This document shows positions 1,349 through 55,537 of a DNA stretch of 64,000 bases, piece by piece. The DNA lies in sequence record PP355090.1. The stretch is one strand, 5' to 3'. The translations under genes and the position numbers were made by a program. The stretch's first letter is position 1, and each line of letters starts with the position of its first letter. This DNA comes from Escherichia phage 232Ecol030PP. The notes under the pieces are model-generated. The model searched no databases. It had not been told where the DNA came from and saw only the letters and a program-made list of their open reading frames with translations.

Positions 1349-3031
1349 TTAAACCATTACAGTAAATCGACCAACTTTCTTCATTTGAAGATGCTGACCA
1401 TATTCTTGTGGGTCGTGGTCTTTATGCGAAATTATAAAAACATTAGTATTTTTCATTGAATTTATAATATTAGCTACACCTTTAATACCTTCAGCATCAA
1501 ATGACCCATCAAACACTTCATCAAGAATTAATGTACTAATACTAACACCAGATACGATAGAAGCAATATCACGCCAAGTAAATAAAAGAGCAATATCGAT
1601 TCGTGCTTTTTCACCTTCACTGAATGAAGCATAACTAAAATCTTCACGACCACGGGATTTAATTGTCTCATTAAATTCTTCATCTAATGTAAACACATAA
1701 TCCGCTTCCATTATTTTAAGATAATGGTTAATCTGCTTATTAAATAATGGAATGTACTTTTTAATAATAGCACCTTTAATACCAGAATCTTTGAGCATAT
1801 CAGTCAAAATTCCTCGGTGGTATTTTTCCATTACTAAATTAGTTTTTGTCTTAACAATTTTATCAAGTTCTTCTTGAAGCAGTGCTATTTCATCAGCATG
1901 GTCAATAAACTCAGAAGATGCTTTTTCTATAGCCGCTTTAACTTTTTTAGCTTTATCTACTGCTGCGATCAGAGATTGCTTTTTATTGCGAATATCATTT
2001 GCCAACGACTGTTGGGTTTTAATATTATCTCGGTATTCATCAACAAGAACTTTTAAATTATCACGATGTGTTAAAAGCTGTTCAAACGAATGCGTACATT
2101 CAGAAACTTTATCTTTAATTTTAGAAACAACTTTATCACCTGAACTTAATTGTGACAAGCAGGTTGGACATAATCCGCCTTCGTGATACATATTAATGAC
2201 TTTATTATACGAGTCAATTTTTGATTTAATTAAAACTGCTTCTTGACCGATTTTATTAAATGCATCAGTCGGGTCTTCATCTAAAACAATATTAACTAAT
2301 CTTTCATTAGCTTCTTCTATTTCCGATTTTAGCGTTCTAGCTTCTTTTGCCAAATCATCATACATATTTTGCAGACGAGTAAGGTTGTCACCAGTTAATT
2401 TTTTCTGGCGTTCAACGTTATCATTATATATTTTAATTTGTTGGATAATACTATCTTTTTTAACATCAAGCACTTGGTTCTGCGAATTTAATTCGCGTAT
2501 TAGTGCTTTATTAAGCTTATCCATTTCAGCTAATGTTCCTACCTCAAGCAGGTCTTCCACAAGCTTTCTTCGCGCAGGGGTCGACAAACCCATGAAAGGG
2601 GTATACCCTGCTGTACCAAGGACAACAATCTGCTTGAAACTGGCATATGACATTCCGATAAGCTGTTCAAATTCTGCTTGGAAATCTTTACTGCTGGCAG
2701 ATTCATTAAGACGTGTACCGTTAACGGTGATTTCGAAAACGTTCGGTTTTTGTCCTCTTTTGATATAGTACTTTTTCTCATCATATTCCATCCACAGTTC
2801 AACTAAAAGTTCTTTCTTATTTGTGCTGTTTATTAATTGACCTTTCTTTACATCGCGAAATGGCTTACCAAAAAGCCCAAATGTGATGGCTTCTAACATA
2901 GTAGACTTACCACCGCCATTTCGTCCAGTAATAAGAGTTTTTTGAACCTTATCTAGTTGAATGTCAATAGGATTTCCACCTACTGACATTATATTTTGAT
3001 ACCTAACTCGGTTTAGTTTAAAATTCTTCAC
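1349..3031 (-). CDS. 46: recombination endonuclease subunit gp46 (SbcC/Rad50-like ATPase)
   Basis: 560-aa ORF with Walker A (GRNGGGKST) and coiled-coil middle; GTG start overlapping upstream stop (GTGA); matches T4 gp46 length. Confidence 0.9.
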   Translation of the reverse strand: MKNFKLNRVRYQNIMSVGGNPIDIQLDKVQKTLITGRNGGGKSTMLEAITFGLFGKPFRDVKKGQLINSTNKKELLVELWMEYDEKKYYIKRGQKPNVFEITVNGTRLNESASSKDFQAEFEQLIGMSYASFKQIVVLGTAGYTPFMGLSTPARRKLVEDLLEVGTLAEMDKLNKALIRELNSQNQVLDVKKDSIIQQIKIYNDNVERQKKLTGDNLTRLQNMYDDLAKEARTLKSEIEEANERLVNIVLDEDPTDAFNKIGQEAVLIKSKIDSYNKVINMYHEGGLCPTCLSQLSSGDKVVSKIKDKVSECTHSFEQLLTHRDNLKVLVDEYRDNIKTQQSLANDIRNKKQSLIAAVDKAKKVKAAIEKASSEFIDHADEIALLQEELDKIVKTKTNLVMEKYHRGILTDMLKDSGIKGAIIKKYIPLFNKQINHYLKIMEADYVFTLDEEFNETIKSRGREDFSYASFSEGEKARIDIALLFTWRDIASIVSGVSISTLILDEVFDGSFDAEGIKGVANIINSMKNTNVFIISHKDHDPQEYGQHLQMKKVGRFTVMV

Positions 3032-12970: not shown

Positions 12971-13012
12971 AATAAAACCCTTACCTTAAATAGATAAGGG
13001 TATTTATTATTT

Positions 13013-13189
13013 TTAAGTATTGTAAAACATTCGATGCAATCGTTTATACTGTCGAATCATCTTTTTAGTAGGACGAGAATAGGTTCCTACGCAAGTGGTC
13101 ATATGAGGGTCCGTAGAATGTCCTTTAATAAAAAGTTTCCAAACCTTACCGCCATTTAACTTTTCAGTATAAACCAATTCGGTTTTCAT
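13013..13189 (-). CDS. hypothetical 58-aa protein with pin-like C-terminus
   Basis: ATG at 13189; C-terminal IRQYKRLHRMFYNT matches the pin C-terminus; encoded over repeat copy A. Confidence 0.35.
   Translation of the reverse strand: MKTELVYTEKLNGGKVWKLFIKGHSTDPHMTTCVGTYSRPTKKMIRQYKRLHRMFYNT
13015..13058. repeat. direct repeat copy A (pin 3'-end-like)
   Basis: 44 nt aagtattgtaaaacattcgatgcaatcgtttatactgtcgaatc, 4 mismatches to copy B. Confidence 0.8.
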
Positions 13190-13224
13190 TAAAATGTCCT
13201 GTCAGAAAAAGAATTTTGAGTTTT

Positions 13225-13710
13225 TCAAGTATTGTAAAACATTTGATGCAATCGCTTATATTGCCGAATCTTTTGGTCAGAAAAAGAAATTTGAGTTTCA
13301 AGCCATTCAATGTACTCTGCGGCAGCTTGCATCAGGTTACCTTCATAGCCATCGTTATTTTCTTGTGCAGCTAATTTAGCTAATGCGTATGAAATACGTT
13401 CACCTTGAAAATCGGCTTTAGGCTTCTGAACAACTTGATTAGTTCGCTCTACAACTTCTTCAATTTCGCCATTTTCGACTGATTCAGTATTCCACAAGCA
13501 CCAATACGTAATTGGCTTATCATAGATGTTAATAATCTTTCCGTCGGAAAGTTCAATTTCAATAATTCCAGTGTCAGGCTCTATATCATCTTCACATTCT
13601 TTTGCAAGTTCACGAACTTTAAAGACAGTACCTGCACTAAGTTCCGGCCAGTAATTACATAGCCCTGTATCAATACGATTAATTCTAAACCACTTATCTA
13701 CTGTAATCAT
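13225..13710 (-). CDS. pin: protease inhibitor PinA (inhibitor of host Lon)
   Basis: ATG at 13710 gives 161 aa MITVDKWFRINRIDTG...; position between nrdC and 49 as in T4. Confidence 0.7.
   Translation of the reverse strand: MITVDKWFRINRIDTGLCNYWPELSAGTVFKVRELAKECEDDIEPDTGIIEIELSDGKIINIYDKPITYWCLWNTESVENGEIEEVVERTNQVVQKPKADFQGERISYALAKLAAQENNDGYEGNLMQAAAEYIEWLETQISFSDQKIRQYKRLHQMFYNT
13227..13270. repeat. direct repeat copy B (3' end of pin)
   Basis: aagtattgtaaaacatttgatgcaatcgcttatattgccgaatc; flanked by 23-nt direct repeats at 13201-13223 and 13276-13298. Confidence 0.8.
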
Positions 13711-32469: not shown

Positions 32470-33000
<531 letters not shown>

Positions 33001-33456
33001 TTAAAAGAGGCTGTTCATTATTCGGTAAAGTGAAGGACCCATCACATATTGCCACTGAGTACGAGGAATAAGAGCAAAAGCATCCATCTCTGGAATCATA
33101 ACGCCATCTTTATTTTCAAAATAAGACTCGCAATGGCAATTTCTAAACATCTCATGCTCTACTGGAATCGTATAATAAAATAACTGTAAGTCTTTATTAC
33201 TAGAATATTTAAATACACCTAGGTCTTCTAGAAGGTCTGGATTATAATTGCTAAAACCGGTCTCTTCTAAGCATTCTCTTTTTGCAGCTTCCAGTGCATT
33301 CAAATCAGAACTTTCTACGCGGCCCTTTGGAATATCCCAGCGATGTGCCATCATTCCAGGCTTACGAGAACCAGTAACCCGACCCATAAATAAATCTTTA
33401 TCTTCTGTCATAAAGATAATACCAGCTGATAGTGTTTTCATTTTAATTTCCTGCAT
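33001..33456 (-). CDS. nudE: Nudix hydrolase NudE
   Basis: 151 aa with Nudix box (GRVESSDLNALEAAKRECLEETG). Confidence 0.8.
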   Translation of the reverse strand: MQEIKMKTLSAGIIFMTEDKDLFMGRVTGSRKPGMMAHRWDIPKGRVESSDLNALEAAKRECLEETGFSNYNPDLLEDLGVFKYSSNKDLQLFYYTIPVEHEMFRNCHCESYFENKDGVMIPEMDAFALIPRTQWQYVMGPSLYRIMNSLF

Positions 33457-33926
33457 TCAGTGATAAAGTTATTTAAATTTTGAGTATATTTCTTTTCATC
33501 AAAAATCTTTTGTTGTCTGCGTAAACGCCATGGCATTTCAATGAACATACGCCATATTCCTGATAATACTGCTGCTGTAAAAATATTAACAAGTATAGTT
33601 AAAAGAACCCAATCTCCTATTCTGTCCATTGGATTTTTTATAAAAAAGTAAAATACGAACGATGATATAGGAAGACTAATGATATACCACAGAAGAACCT
33701 TCTTATCTGTGAACCAATCAGCATTCGTTAACTTAGCGCGACCGTTTTGAATACATACGAACTTATCATCTGTTACAGTAAATGGCTTAGCTGCTTGATA
33801 TCCCATTCTAAACTCCCTAATCAACAAATTTTTCATATCTTCGGAACAACCATTCCAGTCAACTCTATCAACTGAAATGCCATCGTCCCCATCATCTAAA
33901 TCATACCAGCGAGTTTTTAAAATCAT
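33438..33926 (-). CDS. membrane protein
   Basis: 162 aa with two hydrophobic helices. Confidence 0.5.
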   Translation of the reverse strand: MILKTRWYDLDDGDDGISVDRVDWNGCSEDMKNLLIREFRMGYQAAKPFTVTDDKFVCIQNGRAKLTNADWFTDKKVLLWYIISLPISSFVFYFFIKNPMDRIGDWVLLTILVNIFTAAVLSGIWRMFIEMPWRLRRQQKIFDEKKYTQNLNNFITECRKLK

Positions 33927-34285
33927 TTAATTTTCCTACAATCACTCACAAACTCTTCCATTGATTCTTTTTCAATATAAGACATATAGCTATTATATTC
34001 CTTTAATTGTATTTTGTAATCCTTTTTTCTTTGCCAATTTATTTTAAAATTATCATAATGAAAATATAACATGGTACCAAAGAATGAAAATAATGAAATC
34101 GCTATAGTAAAACGAAGTTCACTCCAAACCTCTGTTATAATTACTGTGCCGTCGATATTTAAAATAAAACAGTCAATTAACAATCCAATAAGACTACCCG
34201 CAAGAGCTGTAAATACTGATACAGCAAGAATTAATAGTGCCTCTGGAAACGAATATTTGACTTTATTTAGTTTTGGCTTTTGCAT
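33923..34285 (-). CDS. membrane protein
   Basis: 120 aa with two hydrophobic helices. Confidence 0.5.
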   Translation of the reverse strand: MQKPKLNKVKYSFPEALLILAVSVFTALAGSLIGLLIDCFILNIDGTVIITEVWSELRFTIAISLFSFFGTMLYFHYDNFKINWQRKKDYKIQLKEYNSYMSYIEKESMEEFVSDCRKIK

Positions 34286-34659
34286 CGTGATTCCTTAACA
34301 AATTTCATAATTTCATCAAATTCATACATATCTAGCTTAAGCTGGTGTTCCTTTTTAATCTTTTTACACTGAGCTTTCCAATCACGTACACGTTTACGAT
34401 AATGTCTTCCTTGATACCAGTATCCTACCCAATTTACGGGTACTAATAAAAGTGGAACTATTAATGGAAGAATTAGCATTAACACAAGTATTTCGCCAGA
34501 ATCAATATCAGTCATAACATCTAAAACACCTCCAATAATCAATAGAATTACAAATGATATGAGTATAACAGGACCTATTAACACATCAGTAGAAATTATC
34601 TGACGCTTTGGTTCATACTTCACAGGTTTACTTGGAAGGTATAGTGATGGTTTTGACAT
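34267..34659 (-). CDS. membrane protein
   Basis: ATG at 34659 (track start is TTG); two hydrophobic helices. Confidence 0.5.
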   Translation of the reverse strand: MSKPSLYLPSKPVKYEPKRQIISTDVLIGPVILISFVILLIIGGVLDVMTDIDSGEILVLMLILPLIVPLLLVPVNWVGYWYQGRHYRKRVRDWKAQCKKIKKEHQLKLDMYEFDEIMKFVKESRCKSQN

Positions 34660-35242
34660 ATTCTCTACATTCCTTAACAAATTTTTCTAGTAATAAATCA
34701 CTTTCAAAATTGGGATTTTCTACAAATTTATCAAAAAGATCATCAACAATAGTTAAGATATTCTTTTTACTAAGAATACGTTTATTTTCATGCTTCGTTT
34801 CAGAATCAACTATAAGAGTAAAGAAATATTTCTTGCCCTGAAATTTTACAGTAGTATCAATATAAAATAAATTTGACTTTTGTAAATTACGTTTAAACCA
34901 TGCGTCACTTAAACTATAAACACCGAGATAATCAAAATCGTCGTTTAAATAACAAACCGTCCATTCAGGAGAAATGAAATCAGTAAATTCAACATCAAAA
35001 TCACACGTCAATGAATGAATTGATTCAATACTGTTAATGAGTATTCCAGGACGTATTAAAGACTTTTTACCTCTAGAAAATCTTCCGGAAAGGCTTTCAT
35101 CAGTTTCATATGAAGACCCCCAATAGTAATTACGTCCTTCTGCCATGCGTTTAAGAGCATTTAGTAATTGGTCTGGAACATCAACCTGTCTTTGGAACTC
35201 TTCAAACATTGAATTGAAATCACTTTGCATTTTCATTTTCAT
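34628..35242 (-). CDS. hypothetical protein
   Basis: 204-aa ORF, ATG start. Confidence 0.5.
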   Translation of the reverse strand: MKMKMQSDFNSMFEEFQRQVDVPDQLLNALKRMAEGRNYYWGSSYETDESLSGRFSRGKKSLIRPGILINSIESIHSLTCDFDVEFTDFISPEWTVCYLNDDFDYLGVYSLSDAWFKRNLQKSNLFYIDTTVKFQGKKYFFTLIVDSETKHENKRILSKKNILTIVDDLFDKFVENPNFESDLLLEKFVKECREYVKTITIPSK

Positions 35243-36502: not shown

Positions 36503-36636
36503 AGTTTTGTGAAAAAATTTTTTAAAAAGTTTTAGGGAATTCTAGGGCAGGGAGGGGCAATTAAAAGATAGGATAATATATTATAAAGGGTAGAAACTAA
36601 ATGATGTCTAGAGAGGCCCGGAAAGGCCTAGATACC

Positions 36637-36664
36637 AAAAAGCCCCAACCTTTCGGTCGGGGCT
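36637..36664 (-). terminator. intrinsic terminator (copy 1 of identical 28-mer hairpin)
   Basis: aaaaagccccaacctttcggtcggggct; GC stem plus T-run on minus RNA, directly after stop of 36671..37144. Confidence 0.6.
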
Positions 36665-36670
36665 AAAATG

Positions 36671-37144: not shown

Positions 37145-37190
37145 CTTATTTCCTGTTTTAATTCGTGGTTTTAATATACTTATTTATACT

Positions 37191-37218
37191 AAAAAGCCCC
37201 AACCTTTCGGTCGGGGCT
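37191..37218 (-). terminator. intrinsic terminator closing the tRNA/stable-RNA transcription unit (copy 2 of 28-mer)
   Basis: Identical to 36637-36664; hairpin plus T-run on minus strand. Confidence 0.6.
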
Positions 37219-37269
37219 AAGCCTTGCGGCAACCTTGTCGGGGTTCCACCTGCTAAGGCAAGTGTTTGT

Positions 37270-43453: not shown

Positions 43454-44044
43454 ATGCTCTTTACATTTTTTGATCCGATTGAATATGCGGCCAAAACGGT
43501 GAATAAAAACGCGCCGACTATTCCTATGACAGATATTTTTAGAAACTATAAAGACTATTTTAAACGCGCTCTTGCGGGATACCGCTTACGTACTTATTAT
43601 ATCAAAGGTTCACCACGCCCGGAAGAATTAGCAAATACTATATATGGAAATCCACAGTTGTATTGGGTTTTATTGATGTGTAATGATAATTATGACCCGT
43701 ATTATGGATGGATTACTTCACAAGAAGCAGCTTATCAAGCATCTATACAAAAATACAAAAATGTAGGTGGAGACCAAATAGTATATCATGTGAATGAGAA
43801 CGGTGAAAAATTTTATAATTTAATATCATACGATGATAATCCATATGTTTGGTATGATAAAGGTGATAAAGCTAGAAAATATCCTCAATATGAAGGAGCA
43901 CTTGCTGCTGTTAATACGTATGAAGATGCTGTTCTTGAAAATGAAAAACTTCGTCAAATAAAAATAATAGCAAAATCAGACATTAATTCATTTATGAACG
44001 ACCTTATACGTATAATGGAGAAATCTTATGGAAATGATAAGTAA
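43454..44044 (+). CDS. 53: baseplate wedge protein gp53
   Basis: 196 aa, AGGAGG RBS; T4 gp53 length and position. Confidence 0.85.
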   Translation: MLFTFFDPIEYAAKTVNKNAPTIPMTDIFRNYKDYFKRALAGYRLRTYYIKGSPRPEELANTIYGNPQLYWVLLMCNDNYDPYYGWITSQEAAYQASIQKYKNVGGDQIVYHVNENGEKFYNLISYDDNPYVWYDKGDKARKYPQYEGALAAVNTYEDAVLENEKLRQIKIIAKSDINSFMNDLIRIMEKSYGNDK

Positions 44045-45755
44045 TAACCTTAATTGGTTTGTTGGTGTTGTTGAAGATAGAATGGACCCATTAAAATTAG
44101 GTCGTGTTCGTGTTCGTGTGGTTGGTCTGCATCCACCTCAAAGAGCACAAGGCGATGTAATGGGTATTCCAACTGAAAAATTACCATGGATGTCAGTTAT
44201 TCAACCTATAACTTCTGCAGCAATGTCTGGAATTGGAGGTTCTGTTACTGGACCGGTAGAAGGAACTAGAGTTTATGGTCATTTTTTAGACAAATGGAAA
44301 ACTAACGGAATTGTCCTTGGCACGTATGGTGGAATAGTTCGCGAAAAACCGAATAGACTTGAAGGATTTTCTGACCCAACTGGGCAATATCCTAGACGTT
44401 TAGGAAATGATACTAATGTATTAAACCAAGGCGGAGAAGTAGGATATGATTCGTCTTCTAACATTATCCAAGATAGTAACTTAGACACTGCAATAAATCC
44501 CGATGATAGACCACTATCAGAGATTCCAACCGATGATAATCCAAATATGTCAATGGCTGACATGCTTCGCCGTGATGAAGGATTAAGACTAAAAGTTTAT
44601 TGGGATACTGAAGGATATCCGACAATTGGTATTGGTCATCTTATCATGAAGCAGCCAGTTCGTGATATGGCTCAAATTAATAAAGTTTTATCAAAACAAG
44701 TTGGTCGTGAAATTACTGGAAACCCAGGTTCTATTACGATGGAAGAGGCGACGACTTTATTTGAACGTGATTTGGCTGATATGCAACGGGACATTAAATC
44801 ACATTCTAAAGTAGGACCAGTCTGGCAAGCTGTCAACCGTTCTCGTCAAATGGCGTTAGAAAATATGGCATTTCAAATGGGTGTTGGCGGTGTAGCTAAA
44901 TTTAACACAATGTTAACTGCTATGTTAGCCGGAGATTGGGAAAAAGCATATAAAGCCGGTCGTGATTCATTGTGGTATCAACAAACAAAAGGCCGTGCAT
45001 CCCGTGTTACCATGATTATTCTTACGGGGAATTTGGAATCATATGGTGTTGAAGTGAAAACCCCAGCTAGGTCTCTATCAGCAATGGCTGCTACTGTAGC
45101 TAAATCTTCTGACCCGGCTGACCCTCCTATTCCAAATGACTCGAGAATTTTATTCAAAGAACCAGTTTCTTCATATAAAGGTGAATATCCTTATGTGCAT
45201 ACAATGGAAACTGAAAGCGGACATATTCAGGAATTTGATGATACTCCTGGGCAAGAACGATACAGATTAGTTCATCCGACTGGAACTTATGAAGAAGTAT
45301 CACCGTCAGGAAGAAGAACAAGAAAAACTGTCGATAATTTGTATGATATAACCAACGCTGATGGTAATTTTTTGGTAGCCGGTGATAAAAAGACTAACGT
45401 CGGTGGATCAGAAATTTATTACAACATGGATAATCGTCTTCACCAAATAGATGGAAGCAATACAATATTTGTACGTGGCGATGAAACTAAGACAGTTGAA
45501 GGCAATGGAACTATCCTAGTTAAAGGTAATGTTACTATTGTAGTTGAAGGTAATGCTGACATTACAGTTAAAGGAGATGCTACCACTTTAGTTGAAGGAA
45601 ATCAAACTAACACAGTAAATGGAAATCTTTCTTGGAAAGTTGCTGGGACAGTTGATTGGGACGTTGGTGGTGATTGGACAGAAAAAATGGCATCTATGAG
45701 TTCTATTTCATCTGGTCAATACACAATTGATGGATCGAGGATTGACATTGGCTAA
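44028..45755 (+). CDS. 5: baseplate hub and tail lysozyme gp5
   Basis: 575 aa with lysozyme-like middle domain (LRRDEGLRLKVYWDTEGYPTIGIGHL) and C-terminal VxGxxxxx beta-helix repeats. Confidence 0.92.
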   Translation: MEMISNNLNWFVGVVEDRMDPLKLGRVRVRVVGLHPPQRAQGDVMGIPTEKLPWMSVIQPITSAAMSGIGGSVTGPVEGTRVYGHFLDKWKTNGIVLGTYGGIVREKPNRLEGFSDPTGQYPRRLGNDTNVLNQGGEVGYDSSSNIIQDSNLDTAINPDDRPLSEIPTDDNPNMSMADMLRRDEGLRLKVYWDTEGYPTIGIGHLIMKQPVRDMAQINKVLSKQVGREITGNPGSITMEEATTLFERDLADMQRDIKSHSKVGPVWQAVNRSRQMALENMAFQMGVGGVAKFNTMLTAMLAGDWEKAYKAGRDSLWYQQTKGRASRVTMIILTGNLESYGVEVKTPARSLSAMAATVAKSSDPADPPIPNDSRILFKEPVSSYKGEYPYVHTMETESGHIQEFDDTPGQERYRLVHPTGTYEEVSPSGRRTRKTVDNLYDITNADGNFLVAGDKKTNVGGSEIYYNMDNRLHQIDGSNTIFVRGDETKTVEGNGTILVKGNVTIVVEGNADITVKGDATTLVEGNQTNTVNGNLSWKVAGTVDWDVGGDWTEKMASMSSISSGQYTIDGSRIDIG

Positions 45756-46586: not shown

Positions 46587-48569
46587 ATGGCAAATACCCC
46601 TGTAAATTATCAATTAACAAGAACAGCAAATGCTATTCCCGAGATATTCGTCGGGGGTACATTTGCTGAAATAAAACAAAACCTCATTGAATGGCTTAAT
46701 GGCCAAAATGAATTTTTGGATTATGATTTTGAAGGCTCAAGATTAAACGTTCTGTGTGACCTTTTAGCTTATAATACATTGTACATTCAACAGTTTGGTA
46801 ATGCTGCTGTGTATGAAAGCTTTATGCGTACTGCTAACTTACGAAGTTCAGTTGTTCAAGCTGCACAAGATAACGGATATTTACCTACTTCAAAATCCGC
46901 TGCGCAGACCGAAATTATGTTAACATGCACCGACGCATTGAATAGGAATTACATTACTATTCCTCGCGGAACTCGCTTTTTAGCATATGCAAAAGATACT
47001 TCTGTTAATCCATATAACTTCGTTTCTACCGAAGACGTTATTGCTATTCGTGATAAAAATAACCAATATTTTCCGCGTTTAAAATTGGCCCAGGGACGTA
47101 TAGTAAGAACTGAAATCATTTATGATAAATTAACACCTATTATCATTTATGATAAAAATATTGATAGAAACCAGGTTAAATTATACGTTGATGGAGCAGA
47201 ATGGATTAACTGGACAAGAAAGTCAATGGTTCATGCTGGTTCTACATCGACAATTTACTACATGCGTGAAACTATTGATGGAAATACTGAATTCTATTTT
47301 GGTGAAGGTGAAATTTCTGTTAATGCTTCTGAAGGAGCTTTGACCGCTAATTATATCGGAGGTCTTAAACCTACTCAGAACTCTACGATTGTTATTGAGT
47401 ACATCAGTACTAATGGTGCTGACGCGAACGGAGCAGTCGGATTTTCATACGCAGATACATTAACAAATATAACTGTCATCAATATTAATGAAAATCCAAA
47501 CGATGACCCAGATTTTGTTGGGGCAGATGGCGGCGGTGATCCAGAAGATATTGAGCGTATCCGCGAATTGGGTACTATTAAACGCGAAACCCAGCAACGC
47601 TGCGTAACTGCGACTGACTATGATACATTCGTTTCAGAGAGATTTGGTTCTATTATTCAAGCAGTTCAGACTTTCACTGATTCTACTAAACCTGGTTATG
47701 CATTTATTGCTGCTAAACCTAAATCAGGTCTGTATTTAACTACTGTACAGCGTGAAGATATTAAAAATTATCTCAAAGACTATAATTTAGCTCCTATTAC
47801 GCCATCAATTATTTCTCCTAATTATCTTTTTATTAAGACTAATTTAAAAGTCACATATGCTTTAAATAAGCTGCAAGAATCCGAACAGTGGCTCGAAGGT
47901 CAAATAATTGATAAAATTGATCGTTATTATACCGAAGACGTAGAAATTTTTAATTCATCTTTCGCTAAATCTAAGATGTTGACATATGTAGATGATGCAG
48001 ATCATTCTATCATTGGCTCATCAGCGACAATTCAAATTGTTCGTGAAGTACAAAACTTCTATAAAACGCCTGAAGCAGGTATTAAATACAATAATCAAAT
48101 AAAAGATCGTTCTATGGAATCTAATACGTTTTCATTTAATTCTGGACGAAAGGTTGTAAATCCTGATACTGGTTTAGAAGAAGATGTATTATATGACGTT
48201 CGCATAGTATCAACAGACCGAGATTCTAAAGGAATTGGTAAAGTTATTATTGGTCCATTTGCTTCTGGCGATGTTACAGAAAATGAAAACATTCAGCCAT
48301 ATACAGGCAACGATTTTAACAAATTAGCAAATTCTGATGGACGCGACAAATACTATGTTATCGGTGAAATAAATTATCCAGCTGATGTGATTTATTGGAA
48401 TATCGCTAAAATTAATTTAACATCTGAAAAATTTGAAGTTCAGACCATCGAATTATATTCTGACCCAACCGATGATGTTATCTTTACTCGCGACGGTTCA
48501 CTGATTGTATTTGAAAATGACTTACGTCCACAATACTTAACTATCGATTTGGAGCCTATATCACAATGA
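46587..48569 (+). CDS. 6: baseplate wedge protein gp6
   Basis: 660 aa, T4 gp6 length and order. Confidence 0.88.
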   Translation: MANTPVNYQLTRTANAIPEIFVGGTFAEIKQNLIEWLNGQNEFLDYDFEGSRLNVLCDLLAYNTLYIQQFGNAAVYESFMRTANLRSSVVQAAQDNGYLPTSKSAAQTEIMLTCTDALNRNYITIPRGTRFLAYAKDTSVNPYNFVSTEDVIAIRDKNNQYFPRLKLAQGRIVRTEIIYDKLTPIIIYDKNIDRNQVKLYVDGAEWINWTRKSMVHAGSTSTIYYMRETIDGNTEFYFGEGEISVNASEGALTANYIGGLKPTQNSTIVIEYISTNGADANGAVGFSYADTLTNITVININENPNDDPDFVGADGGGDPEDIERIRELGTIKRETQQRCVTATDYDTFVSERFGSIIQAVQTFTDSTKPGYAFIAAKPKSGLYLTTVQREDIKNYLKDYNLAPITPSIISPNYLFIKTNLKVTYALNKLQESEQWLEGQIIDKIDRYYTEDVEIFNSSFAKSKMLTYVDDADHSIIGSSATIQIVREVQNFYKTPEAGIKYNNQIKDRSMESNTFSFNSGRKVVNPDTGLEEDVLYDVRIVSTDRDSKGIGKVIIGPFASGDVTENENIQPYTGNDFNKLANSDGRDKYYVIGEINYPADVIYWNIAKINLTSEKFEVQTIELYSDPTDDVIFTRDGSLIVFENDLRPQYLTIDLEPISQ

Positions 48570-51500
48570 CAGTAAAAGCACCTTCAGTCACTAGTCTCAG
48601 AATTTCCAAGTTATCCGCAAATCAGGTGCAAGTACGCTGGGATGACGTTGGTGCTAATTTCTACTATTTTGTAGAAATCGCTGAGACAAAAACGAACTCG
48701 GGGGAAAATCTCCCGAGTAATCAATACAGATGGATTAACTTAGGATATACTGCAAATAACAGCTTCTTTTTTGATGATGCTGACCCATTGACATCATACA
48801 TTATCAGAGTAGCTACAGCTGCGCAAGATTTTGAGCAGTCTGATTGGATTTATACCGAAGAGTTTGAAACTTTTGCTACAAATGCTTATACATTTCAAAA
48901 CATGATTGAAATGCAATTAGCCAATAAATTCATTCAGGAAAAATTTACTCTTAATAATTCTGATTATGTTAATTTTAACAATGACACTATAATGGCTGCA
49001 TTGATGAATGAATCATTTCAATTCAGCCCATCGTATGTTGATGTTTCATCAATAAGTAATTTTATTATTGGTGAAAATGAGTATCATGAAATACAAGGTT
49101 CTATTCAGCAAGTATGTAAGGATATTAACCGAGTTTATTTGATGGAATCAGAAGGAATTCTATATCTTTTTGAGCGCTATCAACCTGTAGTTAAAGTATC
49201 CAATGATAAAGGACAAACCTGGAAAGCCGTAAAGCTCTTCAATGACCGTGTAGGATATCCTTTATCTAAGACAGTATATTACCAATCTGCGAACACAACA
49301 TACGTTCTAGGATACGACAAGATTTTCTATGGCCGTAAATCGACTGACGTTAGATGGTCAGCAGATGATGTCAGATTCAGTTCGCAGGATATAACATTTG
49401 CTAAACTTGGCGACCAGTTACATTTAGGATTTGATGTAGAAATCTTTGGTACTTATGCGACTTTACCAGCGAATGTATATCGTATAGCTGAAGCCATTAC
49501 TTGTACGGATGATTATATCTATGTTGTTGCCAGAGATAAAGTTAGATATATAAAAACGAGCAATGCACCTATAGATTCTGATCCATTATCTCCAACATAT
49601 TCGGAAAGGCTATTTGAATCTGATACAATGACTATAACTGGAAATCCTAAAGCAGTATGCTATAAAATGGATTCTATTGGTGATAAAGTTTTTGCTCTTA
49701 TTATCGGTGAAGTTGAAACATTAAATGCTAATCCTAGAACGTCAAAAATAATTGATTCTACTGATAAAGGAATATATGTTTTAAATCATGACACAAAAAC
49801 GTGGAAAAGAGTTTTTGGCAACACTGAAGAAGAAAGAAGACGTATTCAACCTGGGTATGCGAATATGTCAACTGATGGTAAATTAGTTTCTCTATCTTCG
49901 AGTAATTTTAAATTTTTAAATGATAACGTTGTTAATGACCCTGAAACTGTAGCAAAATATCAGTTAATCGGTGCCGTTAAATATGAATTTCCTCGTGAAT
50001 GGTTAGCTGATAAGCATTATCATATGATGGCATTTATAGCAGATGAAAAGTCTGATTGGGAAACTTTTACGCCTCAGCCAATGAAATACTACGCAGAACC
50101 GTTCTTTAATTGGTCTAAAAAATCTAACACACGCTGTTGGATAAACAACTCTAATAGAACTGTAGTAGTTTATGCTGATTTAAAATACACTAAAGTTATA
50201 GAAAATATTCCGGAAACATCACCAGATAGATTAGTTCATGAATACTGGGATGATGGTGATTGTACGATAGTAATGCCAAATGTTAAATTCACGGGATTTA
50301 AAAAATATGCGTCTGGGATGCTTTTTTATAAATCTTCTGGTGAAATAATTTCTTATTATGATTTTAACTATCGTGTGAGAGATACAGTAGAAATTATTTG
50401 GAAGCCGACTGGAGTATTTTTAAAAGCATTTTTACAAAACCAAGAGCATGAGACTCCTTGGTCGCCAGAAGAAGAGCATGGATTAGCTGACCCTGATTTA
50501 AGACCATTAATTGGCACAATGATGCCTGATTCTTATTTGTTGCAGGATTCGAATTTTGAGGCATTTTGTGAAGCATATATTCAATATCTTTCTGACGGAT
50601 ACGGAACTCAGTATAATAATTTACGAAATTTAATTCGTAATCAGTATCCACGAGAAGAGCATGCGTGGGAATATTTGTGGTCAGAGATATATAAAAGAAA
50701 CATTTATTTAAATGCTGACAAACGTGATGCTGTTGCAAGATTTTTTGAATCACGTAGTTATGATTTTTATTCTACTAAAGGAATTGAAGCATCATACAAA
50801 TTTCTTTTTAAAGTTCTTTATAATGAAGAAGTTGAAATTGAAATTGAATCTGGAGCTGGTACTGAATATGATATAATCGTTCAATCTGATTCTTTGACTG
50901 AGGATTTAGTAGGACAAACGATTTATACAGCTACAGGAAGATGTAATGTTACTTATATAGAAAGAAGTTATTCTAATGGTAAATTGCAATGGACCGTGAC
51001 TATACATAATCTTTTGGGGCGTTTAATAGCAGGGCAAGAAGTTAAAGCAGAAAGACTTCCTAGTTTTGAAGGCGAAATTATTCGTGGGGTTAAAGGAAAG
51101 GATTTGCTTCAAAATAATATAGACTATATTAATAGAAGTCGATCATATTATGTAATGAAAATTAAATCCAATTTACCTTCTTCTCGTTGGAAATCTGACG
51201 TTATTCGTTTTGTTCATCCAGTAGGATTTGGATTTATAGCAATCACGCTTTTAACTATGTTTATTAATGTCGGTTTAACTCTTAAACACACAGAGACAAT
51301 AATTAATAAATATAAAAACTACAAATGGGATTCTGGATTGCCTACTGAATATGCTGATAGAGTAGCTAAATTAACTCCAACTGGTGAAATTGAACATGAT
51401 TCAGTAACAGGAGAAGCAATTTATGAACCTGGCCCAATGGCTGGTGTAAAATATCCTCTTCCTGATGACTATAATGCTGAAAATAATAATTCAATATTTC

Positions 51501-51664
51501 AAGGTCAATTGCCTTCTGAACGACGCAAGTTAATGAGTCCTCTATTTGACGCATCTGGAACAACATTTGCACAGTTTAGGGATTTAGTTAATAAACGTCT
51601 AAAAGATAATATAGGAAATCCAAGAGACCCTGAAAATCCAACACAGGTTAAAATAGATGAATGA
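48566..51664 (+). CDS. 7: baseplate wedge initiator gp7
   Basis: 1032 aa, T4 gp7 length and order. Confidence 0.88.
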   Translation: MTVKAPSVTSLRISKLSANQVQVRWDDVGANFYYFVEIAETKTNSGENLPSNQYRWINLGYTANNSFFFDDADPLTSYIIRVATAAQDFEQSDWIYTEEFETFATNAYTFQNMIEMQLANKFIQEKFTLNNSDYVNFNNDTIMAALMNESFQFSPSYVDVSSISNFIIGENEYHEIQGSIQQVCKDINRVYLMESEGILYLFERYQPVVKVSNDKGQTWKAVKLFNDRVGYPLSKTVYYQSANTTYVLGYDKIFYGRKSTDVRWSADDVRFSSQDITFAKLGDQLHLGFDVEIFGTYATLPANVYRIAEAITCTDDYIYVVARDKVRYIKTSNAPIDSDPLSPTYSERLFESDTMTITGNPKAVCYKMDSIGDKVFALIIGEVETLNANPRTSKIIDSTDKGIYVLNHDTKTWKRVFGNTEEERRRIQPGYANMSTDGKLVSLSSSNFKFLNDNVVNDPETVAKYQLIGAVKYEFPREWLADKHYHMMAFIADEKSDWETFTPQPMKYYAEPFFNWSKKSNTRCWINNSNRTVVVYADLKYTKVIENIPETSPDRLVHEYWDDGDCTIVMPNVKFTGFKKYASGMLFYKSSGEIISYYDFNYRVRDTVEIIWKPTGVFLKAFLQNQEHETPWSPEEEHGLADPDLRPLIGTMMPDSYLLQDSNFEAFCEAYIQYLSDGYGTQYNNLRNLIRNQYPREEHAWEYLWSEIYKRNIYLNADKRDAVARFFESRSYDFYSTKGIEASYKFLFKVLYNEEVEIEIESGAGTEYDIIVQSDSLTEDLVGQTIYTATGRCNVTYIERSYSNGKLQWTVTIHNLLGRLIAGQEVKAERLPSFEGEIIRGVKGKDLLQNNIDYINRSRSYYVMKIKSNLPSSRWKSDVIRFVHPVGFGFIAITLLTMFINVGLTLKHTETIINKYKNYKWDSGLPTEYADRVAKLTPTGEIEHDSVTGEAIYEPGPMAGVKYPLPDDYNAENNNSIFQGQLPSERRKLMSPLFDASGTTFAQFRDLVNKRLKDNIGNPRDPENPTQVKIDE

Positions 51665-52661
51665 TTCAAGTGTTATCTATCGTGCGATAGTTACTTCAAA
51701 ATTTAGAACAGAAAAAATGTTGAATTTTTATAATTCAATTGGGAGTGGTCCGGATAAAAACACTATCTTTATCACATTTGGAAGATCAGAACCGTGGTCA
51801 TCAAATGAAAATGAGGTGGGCTTTGCCCCACCTTATCCAACCGATTCTGTATTAGGCGTAACTGACATGTGGACGCATATGATGGGAACAGTAAAAGTTC
51901 TTCCATCAATGCTTGATGCTGTTATTCCTCGCAGAGATTGGGGAGATACTAGATATCCGGATCCATACACATTTAGAATTAACGATATTGTAGTGTGTAA
52001 CTCAGCTCCTTACAACGCTACTGAATCAGGCGCAGGCTGGTTAGTATATCGTTGTTTAGATGTTCCTGATACCGGAATGTGTTCAATAGCATCTTTAACT
52101 AATAAGGATGAATGCCTCAAATTAGGCGGAAAATGGACTCCTTCTGTTAGGTCAATGACTCCTCCTGAAGGTCGAGGAGATGCGGAAGGAACAATCGAAC
52201 CTGGAGACGGATATGTTTGGGAATATCTTTTTGAGATTCCGCCCGATGTATCTATAAATAGATGCACAAATGAATATATCGTAGTTCCTTGGCCTGAGGA
52301 ATTAAAAGAAGACCCAACTAGATGGGGGTATGAAGATAATCTCACTTGGCAGCAAGATGATTTTGGGTTAATTTATCGTGTTAAAGCTAATACAATTCGT
52401 TTTAAAGCATATTTAGATTCAGTTTATTTTCCTGAAGCTGCATTGCCGGGAAATAAAGGATTTAGACAAATATCAATAATCACGAATCCTCTTGAAGCTA
52501 AAGTTCATCCAAATGATCCAAACGTTAAAGCTGAAAAGGATTATTATGATCCAGAAGATTTAATGAGGCATTCGGGCGAAATGATTTATATGGAAAATAG
52601 GCCACCTATTATCATGGCAATGGATCAGACAGAAGAAATCAATATTCTGTTTACATTTTAA
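51657..52661 (+). CDS. 8: baseplate wedge protein gp8
   Basis: 334 aa, T4 gp8 length and order; terminator hairpin follows. Confidence 0.88.
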   Translation: MNDSSVIYRAIVTSKFRTEKMLNFYNSIGSGPDKNTIFITFGRSEPWSSNENEVGFAPPYPTDSVLGVTDMWTHMMGTVKVLPSMLDAVIPRRDWGDTRYPDPYTFRINDIVVCNSAPYNATESGAGWLVYRCLDVPDTGMCSIASLTNKDECLKLGGKWTPSVRSMTPPEGRGDAEGTIEPGDGYVWEYLFEIPPDVSINRCTNEYIVVPWPEELKEDPTRWGYEDNLTWQQDDFGLIYRVKANTIRFKAYLDSVYFPEAALPGNKGFRQISIITNPLEAKVHPNDPNVKAEKDYYDPEDLMRHSGEMIYMENRPPIIMAMDQTEEINILFTF

Positions 52662-52666
52662 ATTAA

Positions 52667-52690
52667 GGGAGCCCATGGGCTCCCTTTTTC
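52667..52690 (+). terminator. intrinsic terminator after gene 8 (copy 1)
   Basis: Palindrome gggagcccatgggctccc followed by ttttt. Confidence 0.6.
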
Positions 52691-52692
52691 TT

Positions 52693-52700
52693 TATAAATA
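52693..52700 (+). promoter_or_regulatory. late promoter TATAAATA (copy 1)
   Basis: Exact TATAAATA. Confidence 0.55.
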
Positions 52701-52807
52701 CTATAAACTCATAAGGAAACCGCTATGTTCATTCAAGAACCAAAGAAATTGATTGATACAATGGATCAGACAGAAGAAATCAATATTCTGTTTACATTTT
52801 AAATTAA

Positions 52808-52831
52808 GGGAGCCCATGGGCTCCCTTTTTC
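52808..52831 (+). terminator. intrinsic terminator (duplicated copy 2)
   Basis: Identical hairpin plus T-run in second repeat unit. Confidence 0.55.
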
Positions 52832-52833
52832 TT

Positions 52834-52841
52834 TATAAATA
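52834..52841 (+). promoter_or_regulatory. late promoter TATAAATA for gene 9 (copy 2)
   Basis: Exact TATAAATA 25 nt upstream of gp9 ATG at 52866. Confidence 0.6.
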
Positions 52842-52865
52842 CTATAAACTCATAAGGAAACCGCT

Positions 52866-53732
52866 ATGTTCATTCAAGAACCAAAGAAATTGATTGATAC
52901 CGGCGAAATTGGTAACGCTTCTACTGGTGATATCTTATTCGACGGTGGTAATAAAATTAATAGTGATTTTAACGCAATTTATAATGCGTTTGGCGATCAG
53001 CGTAAAATGGCAGTAGCAAATGGCACTGGAGCAGATGGTCAAATTATCCATGCTACTGGATATTATCAAAAGCACTCTATCGCGGAGTACGCAACTCCAG
53101 TGAAAGTTGGCACTAGACATGATATTGATACCTCTACTGTAGGTGTTAAAGTTATTATTGAAAGAGGAGAACTTGGCGATTGTGTTGAATTCATTAACTC
53201 TAATGGATCAATATCAGTTACTAATCCTTTAACGATTCAGGCTATTGATTCAATTAAAGGCGTTTCAGGTAATTTAGTAGTAACTAGTCCATATAGTAAA
53301 GTTACTTTACGTTGTATTTCATCTGATAATTCTACGTCGGTTTGGAATTATTCTATTGAAAGTATGTTTGGTCAAAAGGAATCACCTGCTGAAGGTACAT
53401 GGAATATTTCTACATCTGGGTCAGTTGACATTCCATTGTTTCATCGTACTGAATATAACATGGCTAAATTGTTAGTTACATGCCAATCAGTAGATGGAAG
53501 AAAAATTAAAACGGCAGAAATAAATATTCTTGTAGATACTGTTAATTCAGCGGTCATTTCTTCTGAATATGCTGTCATGCGGGTTGGAAATGAAACAGAA
53601 GAAGACGAAATCGCTAATATTGCATTTAGTATTAAAGAAAATTATGTAACGGCAACTATAAGTTCTTCAACTGTCGGTATGAGAGCAGCAGTTAAAGTTA
53701 TCGCTACGCAGAAAATCGGGGTGGCTCAATAA
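52866..53732 (+). CDS. 9: baseplate wedge tail fiber connector gp9
   Basis: 288 aa, T4 gp9 length and order. Confidence 0.88.
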   Translation: MFIQEPKKLIDTGEIGNASTGDILFDGGNKINSDFNAIYNAFGDQRKMAVANGTGADGQIIHATGYYQKHSIAEYATPVKVGTRHDIDTSTVGVKVIIERGELGDCVEFINSNGSISVTNPLTIQAIDSIKGVSGNLVVTSPYSKVTLRCISSDNSTSVWNYSIESMFGQKESPAEGTWNISTSGSVDIPLFHRTEYNMAKLLVTCQSVDGRKIKTAEINILVDTVNSAVISSEYAVMRVGNETEEDEIANIAFSIKENYVTATISSSTVGMRAAVKVIATQKIGVAQ

Positions 53733-55537
53733 TGAAACAAAATATTAATATCGGTAATGTTGTTGATGATGGTACCGGTGACTACCTGCGTAAAGGTGGT
53801 ATAAAAATAAATGAAAACTTTGATGAACTTTATTATGAACTTGGCGATGGAGATGTTCCATATTCAGCCGGTGCCTGGAAAACTTATAATGCTTCATCCG
53901 GTCAAACATTAAAAGCTAAGTGGGGAAAATCATACGCTATTAATACCTCTTCTGGAAGAGTAACTTTACAACTTCCTAAAGGAACTGTTAATGATTATAA
54001 TAAAGTAATTAGAGCTAGGGATGTATTTGCAACATGGAACATTAATCCAGTTACTTTAGTAGCTGCTTCTGGGGATACAATTAAAGGGTCGTCATCGTCA
54101 GTTGAAATTAATATTCAATTTAGTGATTTAGAGCTCGTTTATTGTGCTCCAGGACGTTGGGAATATGTCAAAAACAAACAAATTGACAAAATTATTAGTT
54201 CAGATATTAGTAATGTAGCACGTAAAGAATTTTTAGTCGAAGTTCAAGGACAAACAGACTTTTTAGATGTTTTCCATGGAACTAGTTATAATGTCAATAA
54301 CATCAGAGTAAAACATCGTGGTAACGAATTGTATTACGGTGATGTATTTAGCGAAAACAGTGACTTTGGCTCTCCGGGCGAAAATGAAGGCGAATTAGTT
54401 CCTCTTGATGGATTTAATATTCGATTAAGACAGCCTTGTAATATTGGTGACACCGTTCAAATTGAAACATTTATGGATGGTGTATCACAATGGAGAAGTT
54501 CATATACAAGACGCCAAATAAAAGTATTAGATTCAAAATTAACGTCAAAAACTTCTTTAGAAGGAAGTATTTACGTTACTGATTTATCAACAATGAAATC
54601 AATTCCATTCTCTGCATTTGGATTAATTCCTGGAGAACCTATTAATCCTAATTCTCTTGAAGTTCGTTTTAATGGAATTTTACAACAACAAGCTGGAACA
54701 GCAGGATATCCTCTGTTTTTGTGTGAAGGTGCTAACTCAGATACGCAAGCAGGATGTATATCTCTTGGTGGTGAATGGAAAGAATCTAACACAGATTATT
54801 CTATAGAATATGAAGATGGAAAACCTGTCAGTCTTTTATTTGATAGAAAATTTGAATCAGGTGATATAATCGTTATAACATGGTTTAATAATGATTTAGG
54901 AACTCTTTTAGAAAAAGATGACATTATTGAATTAACTGATGACCGTTATGTTAGTAAAGGATCATCTACCGAAGTTACTGGGGATGTAGCCTTAACAGAT
55001 TTTGATAAAATCGGTTGGCCAAATGTTGAAAAAGTTGATTCTTATACTAGAACGTATAATTCAATATCATCTATTTTCGATAGCATTTATCCCGTAGGTT
55101 CAATTTATGAAAATGCTATAAACCCAAATAATCCGGTGACTTATATGGGGTTTGGTTCGTGGAAATTATTTGGTAAAGGACAAGTTTTAGTAGGATGGAA
55201 TGATGATGTTACGGATCCAAACTTTGCTTTAAACAATAATGATTTAGATTCTAGCGGAAATCCTTCACATACTGCCGGTGGAACAGTTGGAACAACATCG
55301 GTGACACTTGAGAACGCAAATCTTCCTGCGACTAAAACTGATGAAAAAGTTTTAATTGAAGATGAAAACGGATCAGTTATTATTGGAGGTTGTCAATATG
55401 ACCCAGACGAAACTGGTCCTATATATACAAAATATCGTGAAGACTACGCAACAACAAACTCTTCACATACTCCTCCTACTAATATTAGTAATATTCAACC
55501 GTCTATTACTGTATACCGTTGGATAAGGATTGCATAA
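53732..55537 (+). CDS. 10: baseplate wedge subunit and tail pin gp10
   Basis: 601 aa, start overlaps gp9 stop (TAATG). Confidence 0.88.

Follow-up and report, generated by a model that had tools for sequence, protein, structure and literature searches.

Architecture of the gene 8/gene 9 junction

The locus belongs to the block of baseplate genes of a T4-like phage (Tequatrovirus). Over 24 kb the window, that is, the whole 64-kb stretch of DNA analysed here, shares 98-99% identity with many phages of this kind. Genes 8 and 9, which encode two components of the baseplate wedge, are both intact (Table 1), and a head-to-tail direct repeat with a unit of 141 bp and one novel junction spans the place where they meet. 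Gene 8 ends inside the first copy of the unit with the C-terminal residues MDQTEEINILFTF and its stop codon, while the true start of gene 9 sits in the second copy.

Each unit carries the last 13 codons of gene 8 plus the stop codon, a predicted terminator, a match to the T4 late-promoter motif, a ribosome-binding site and the beginning of gene 9. The terminator hairpin (52665-52686 and 52806-52827) is a 9-bp, GC-rich stem followed by a T-run, with a folding energy of -16.2 kcal/mol (z = -2.9). The ribosome-binding site, AAGGAAA, is located 5 nt ahead of the ATGs at 52725 and 52866. As regards gene 9, each unit includes 11 whole codons and the first base of codon 12, a threonine codon that reads ACC in the real gene and is remade as ACA at the junction. 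Since the two genes are in the same frame and 141 equals 47 x 3, the frame opened by the first gene 9 start runs on into the orphan tail of gene 8, giving an open reading frame of 25 codons; this chimeric frame exists only if the duplication is real.

A first-pass annotation made from the sequence had described two terminators, two late promoters and a 25-codon chimeric frame at this place, and the anatomy was borne out. It had also assigned the first 12 codons of gene 9 to each unit, which holds for 11 of them, codon 12 being represented by its first base only.

The late-promoter motif is not enriched across the window (13 occurrences observed, 10.7 expected). A third occurrence on the plus strand, at 52253-52260, falls within gene 8 and precedes the duplicated unit by about 440 nt.

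Table 1. Positions of the duplicated unit, of the genes and predicted signals around it, and of other features discussed in the text.
Feature	Position in window	Strand	Remarks
Gene 8 (baseplate wedge subunit gp8), intact	51657..52661	+	334 aa, length as in T4 gp8 and JB75
Gene 9 (baseplate wedge tail fiber connector gp9), intact	52866..53732	+	288 aa, length as in T4 gp9
Copy 1 of the 141-bp unit	52618..52758	+	Real gene 8 3' end, terminator, late promoter, RBS, truncated gene 9 start; identical to copy 2
Copy 2 of the 141-bp unit	52759..52899	+	Orphan gene 8 tail, terminator, late promoter, RBS, real gene 9 start
Novel junction, ...TTGATTGATAC / AATGGATCAG...	52748..52769, join 52758/52759	not assigned	1 nt (C) of homology; putative assembly seam
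Intrinsic terminator 1, AAGGGAGCCCATGGGCTCCCTT plus T-run	52665..52696	+	Predicted hairpin; rho-independent terminator in the JB75 annotation
Intrinsic terminator 2 (copy)	52806..52837	+	Predicted hairpin
T4 late-promoter motif TATAAATA, copy 1	52693..52700	+	Motif match
T4 late-promoter motif TATAAATA, copy 2	52834..52841	+	Motif match
25-codon chimeric ORF	52725..52802	+	gp9 residues 1-12 joined in frame to gp8 residues 322-334; encodes MFIQEPKKLIDTMDQTEEINILFTF
Gene 5 (baseplate hub and tail lysozyme)	44028-45755		575 aa
Dispersed repeat family D1	9135, 21537, 22017, 39349, 39647, 39978
Dispersed repeat family D2	20075, 24772, 25584, 36440

Extent and uniqueness of the 141-bp repeat

The two copies are alike at 141 of 141 bases, with no insertions or deletions. 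Tandem Repeats Finder reported the array with a period of 141, 2.0 copies, 100% matches and a score of 566, far above that of any other array in the window, and in a whole-window repeat scan it was the only perfect repeat of at least 30 nt in the 64 kb. Neither the scan nor Tandem Repeats Finder found any other perfect repeat that might mark a further seam. In addition, two occurrences of a 61-nt core of the unit were counted in the window, where shuffled sequences give an expectation of 0.00. The repeat is present as described, and a chance match is ruled out.

Identity at period 141 extends 0 bases leftward and 1 base rightward, to the C at 52900, and the homology at the novel junction amounts to that 1 nt (C); the string across 52758/52759 reads TTGATTGATACAATGGATCAG. 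The exact 141-bp duplication sharing the C at 52759 that had been noted in the first-pass annotation was thus recovered in full.

Other repeats in the window

Several imperfect repeats were also observed. The C-terminal part of the gene 5 product is encoded by a tandem array at 45494-45626 with a 24/48-nt period and 71-81% matches, which reads VEGNGTILVKGNVTIVVEGNADITVKGDATTLVEGNQT at the protein level; it corresponds to the 8-residue repeat already known from the gp5 beta-helix needle and is, as such, ordinary. Two families of dispersed repeats of about 71 nt (D1 and D2 in Table 1), with 61-86% identity, have in common the pattern ...GATAGTTGTATAGTACCAC...GTAAACA.... Their minus-strand sequence is reminiscent of T4 early promoters, with a GTTTAC -35 box and a TATACTAT-type -10 box, and they often adjoin a short palindrome; they may be regulatory cassettes of the PeSL (early promoter plus stem-loop) kind. 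A 35-nt hairpin-containing element, ATACCAAAAAGCCCCAACCTTTCGGTCGGGGCTAA, is found at 36632-36666 and 37186-37220 in copies that are 97% identical and 554 nt apart, and the pair resembles a terminator duplicated to either side of a small gene. Finally, a 49-nt direct repeat (13010-13058 and 13222-13270) shows 90% identity over a distance of 212 nt.

Related phages and metagenome contigs carry one copy

A 901-base query around the site was compared with 50,697 phage records, 496 of which cover at least 80% of it. Each of the matches listed covers 760 bases, the query length of 901 less 141, as two pieces, corresponding to a single copy of the unit. Phage JB75 is 100% identical on both flanks, the sole difference being a clean gap of 141 bases, and deleting either copy from the window sequence restores 100% identity to it. 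In reference T4 (NC_000866, AF158101) the unit is likewise present once, with the end of gene 8 at 87155, the start of gene 9 at 87219 and a 63-nt spacer between them, and the spacer is the same in each other relative compared. The single copy in T4, which the first-pass annotation had put forward, is therefore confirmed, and the comparison with related T4-like genomes that it had proposed gives the same answer for the Tequatrovirus matches listed.

While the 901 bases at the gene 8/gene 9 junction match JB75 at 100% outside the gap, the best match over 24 kb is another phage, ECML-123-2, at 99.3% identity; a pattern of this kind is the usual mosaic relatedness of T4-like phages.

Metagenome data point in the same direction. 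The exact gp10 sequence (601 aa, 53732-55537) was found on 4 contigs, and only in related contigs with a single copy, while the exact gp7 sequence (1032 aa, 48566-51664) was absent from the collection of assemblies searched. Two independent metagenome assemblies with identical gp10, the ENA MEGAHIT contig k141_172299 and a Logan contig, hold one copy each. Altogether, 5-6 metagenome or IMG/VR contigs are single-copy, including three IMG/VR contigs that match the 61-nt probe once; a fourth IMG/VR contig (L010) has no exact match to the probe. None of the four IMG/VR contigs that match the adjacent gene 9 sequence opens or closes at the seam, as a wrapped contig with a direct terminal repeat would; all four hold that sequence internally.

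The novel junction itself was absent from the phage collection (40-nt query, 50,697 records) and, as an exact 28-nt pattern, from IMG/VR, the JGI metagenome contigs and the GTDB genomes. Taken by itself, this absence suits an artefact and a unique recent mutation alike and cannot separate them.

Gene coordinates consistent with re-opening at the T4 origin

In the window, rpbA is located at 707-1096 and gene 46 at 1349-3031; their counterparts in T4 lie on the same strand at 32659-33048 and 33302-34984, respectively, so that window position 1 corresponds to T4 position ~31,953, also on the same strand. Assuming that the window was cut from its source at a round coordinate (window start 32,001), these offsets are consistent with a record opened at the conventional T4 origin. 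Since the opening point of a de novo contig is random, a record that follows the T4 convention would be a rotated contig with its seam inside.

In this regard, assembler constants have left documented traces. MEGAHIT 1.2.9 works through the k-list 21, 29, 39, 59, 79, 99, 119, 141 and yields contig-end overlaps of length maxK (PMC10914622), and circular 'k141_' contigs from this assembler carry end overlaps of 141 bp (bioRxiv 10.1101/2023.06.07.544120). In the mitogenome of Lycopodina hypogea, a contig made with default MEGAHIT 1.2.9 contained a 141-bp insert that was an exact copy of the adjacent sequence and was judged an artefact, being contained in no read (PMC11572364). Comparable cases are known from phages: artificial overlaps of 127 bp produced by SPAdes have been left in phage genomes (PMC5923482), terminal repeats of 127 bp were trimmed from phage U136B before its genome was re-opened (PMC8104045), and internal repeats of ~79 bp in short-read phage assemblies were refuted by Sanger sequencing (PMC10438801).

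A model for the origin of the repeat

Taken together, these findings make it very likely that the 141-bp repeat is an assembly artefact, most probably an untrimmed contig-end overlap left at a seam by MEGAHIT run to k = 141. This reading is favoured because the length of the unit equals the default final k of MEGAHIT, the copies show zero divergence, the junction has 1 nt of homology and is absent from the collections searched, the record appears re-opened at the T4 origin, and the relatives have one copy. We infer both the use of MEGAHIT for this genome and a later rotation of the contig; it is the number 141 alone that points to this particular assembler.

The genomes of T4-like phages are circularly permuted, and short reads from them consequently assemble as a closed loop. 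MEGAHIT would write such a loop in the de Bruijn graph as a linear contig that ends with the same k bases with which it begins. If the contig was then re-opened at the T4 origin, the old end would have been pasted onto the old start and, with the overlap untrimmed, a perfect head-to-tail repeat of 141 bp would have come to lie inside the record. The same outcome would follow if two contigs with a shared 141-bp overlap were concatenated. In either case the seam would have fallen near the gene 8/gene 9 junction by chance, and a homology of 1 nt is what is expected of a random cut. The true genome would then have one terminator, one late promoter and no chimeric open reading frame.

Alternative explanations

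A genuine tandem duplication would look the same in the sequence, and the zero divergence of the copies suits a very recent event in the phage isolate. Illegitimate recombination or template switching with little or no homology, joining codon 12 of gene 9 to codon 321 of gene 8, followed by fixation in a plaque-purification bottleneck, would have doubled both the terminator and the late promoter ahead of gene 9 and created a chimeric peptide of 25 aa expressed from the gene 9 ribosome-binding site. Such a phage would be viable, as one intact copy of each gene remains, which is always so when the ends of a tandem duplication lie in two different genes; the unit is in frame, and the effect would probably be near neutral. 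Homology-independent routes to duplications exist, tandem duplications are classical mutations of T4, for example in the rII region, and T4 tolerates small increases in genome size through headful packaging. Nevertheless, we consider a real event unlikely. No selective benefit of the duplication is evident, and the very active homologous recombination of T4 would tend to collapse an unselected direct repeat of 141 bp. The microhomology available for slippage or short-homology recombination, a single C, is at chance level, and slippage at microhomology was not favoured as an origin on this ground. Moreover, the duplication is absent from the ~500 related records, as far as they were listed or retrieved, and from the public contigs examined, and a second isolate or assembly with the junction was found neither among the 50,697 phage records nor in IMG/VR, the JGI metagenome contigs or the GTDB genomes. 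A literature search on small tandem duplications in T4 returned nothing directly usable. What weighs further against a real event is that its length coincides exactly with the assembler constant 141, a match that we estimate at ~1-2% for a real duplication and that is expected under an artefact; nothing about a real duplication would dictate a length of 141 bp. This coincidence is weaker than 1 in several hundred, because a length equal to any of about ten final k values in common use, among them 127, 99, 77 and 55, would have looked equally suspicious.

The stem-loop terminator directly before a promoter gives the unit a superficial likeness to the PeSL cassettes, which drive the shuffling of modules and the formation of mini-circles in T4-type phages through homologous crossover inside two separate cassettes, in hyperplastic regions and with sigma-70-like early promoters (Arbiol et al. 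2010, PMC2839356). By analogy, the terminator-plus-late-promoter cassette might have mediated the duplication. The relatives, however, have a single cassette; the end points lie in the coding sequences of genes 8 and 9, outside the cassette, so that a homologous exchange between cassettes does not apply, and the context is a late-type promoter in the conserved baseplate core. The positions of the end points largely refute cassette recombination of this type, which we regard as highly improbable. A true direct terminal repeat, or terminal redundancy of the virion DNA, was also rejected: the repeat is internal and tandem, and the terminal redundancy of T4-type phages is kilobases long and permuted.

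Together, our results strongly favour an assembly artefact and disfavour a real duplication, a choice that the first-pass annotation had left open, the significance of the number 141 having escaped it.

Implications

The 141-bp repeat is most likely not a real biological feature, and the importance of the case is chiefly one of quality control. With the artefact left in, the record is 141 bp too long and presents a spurious second terminator, a second late promoter and a 25-codon open reading frame; annotation, promoter and terminator counts, indel calls in pangenomes and the design of primers for the gene 8/gene 9 junction may all suffer. As a screening rule, a perfect tandem or terminal repeat with the length of a common assembler k (141, 127, 99, 77, 55) should be considered an artefact until reads prove otherwise.

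Were the duplication real, it would add a modest case to a type of mutation that is well known in T4. It would offer a glimpse of how a promoter is duplicated and an ORF is born de novo in the conserved baseplate operon of a natural T4-like isolate, with the terminator of gene 8 and the late promoter of gene 9 doubled and a translatable gp9-gp8 fusion micro-ORF of 25 codons.

Comparison with known systems

PeSL cassettes and the 141-bp unit both place a stem-loop terminator beside a promoter in a short unit. The former, however, involve an early promoter in a hyperplastic region, whereas the unit described here has a late promoter, is located in the conserved core and extends beyond the cassette at both ends.

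The classical T4 duplications, such as those of rII, resemble the repeat in form, being head-to-tail with a novel junction, a fusion ORF and intact flanking genes. These duplications are usually selected, often kilobases long and unstable. The 141-bp repeat differs from them in showing no evident selection, a homology of 1 nt and a length specific to an assembler.

The overlaps that MEGAHIT (k = 141) and SPAdes (k = 127) leave on circular contigs resemble the repeat in being perfectly identical, matching the final k in length, occurring in a circularly permuted phage genome, lying at positions independent of genes and lacking support in related genomes. Such overlaps normally lie at the two ends of a contig, whereas the repeat is internal, so that an extra step, the re-opening or concatenation of untrimmed sequence, would be needed, as suggested by the T4-convention coordinates. 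In the Lycopodina hypogea mitogenome, a different organism, the artefact was checked against reads, while for the phage repeat it is deduced from sequence; in both cases, an insert of 141 bp is an exact copy of the adjacent sequence in a circular replicon.
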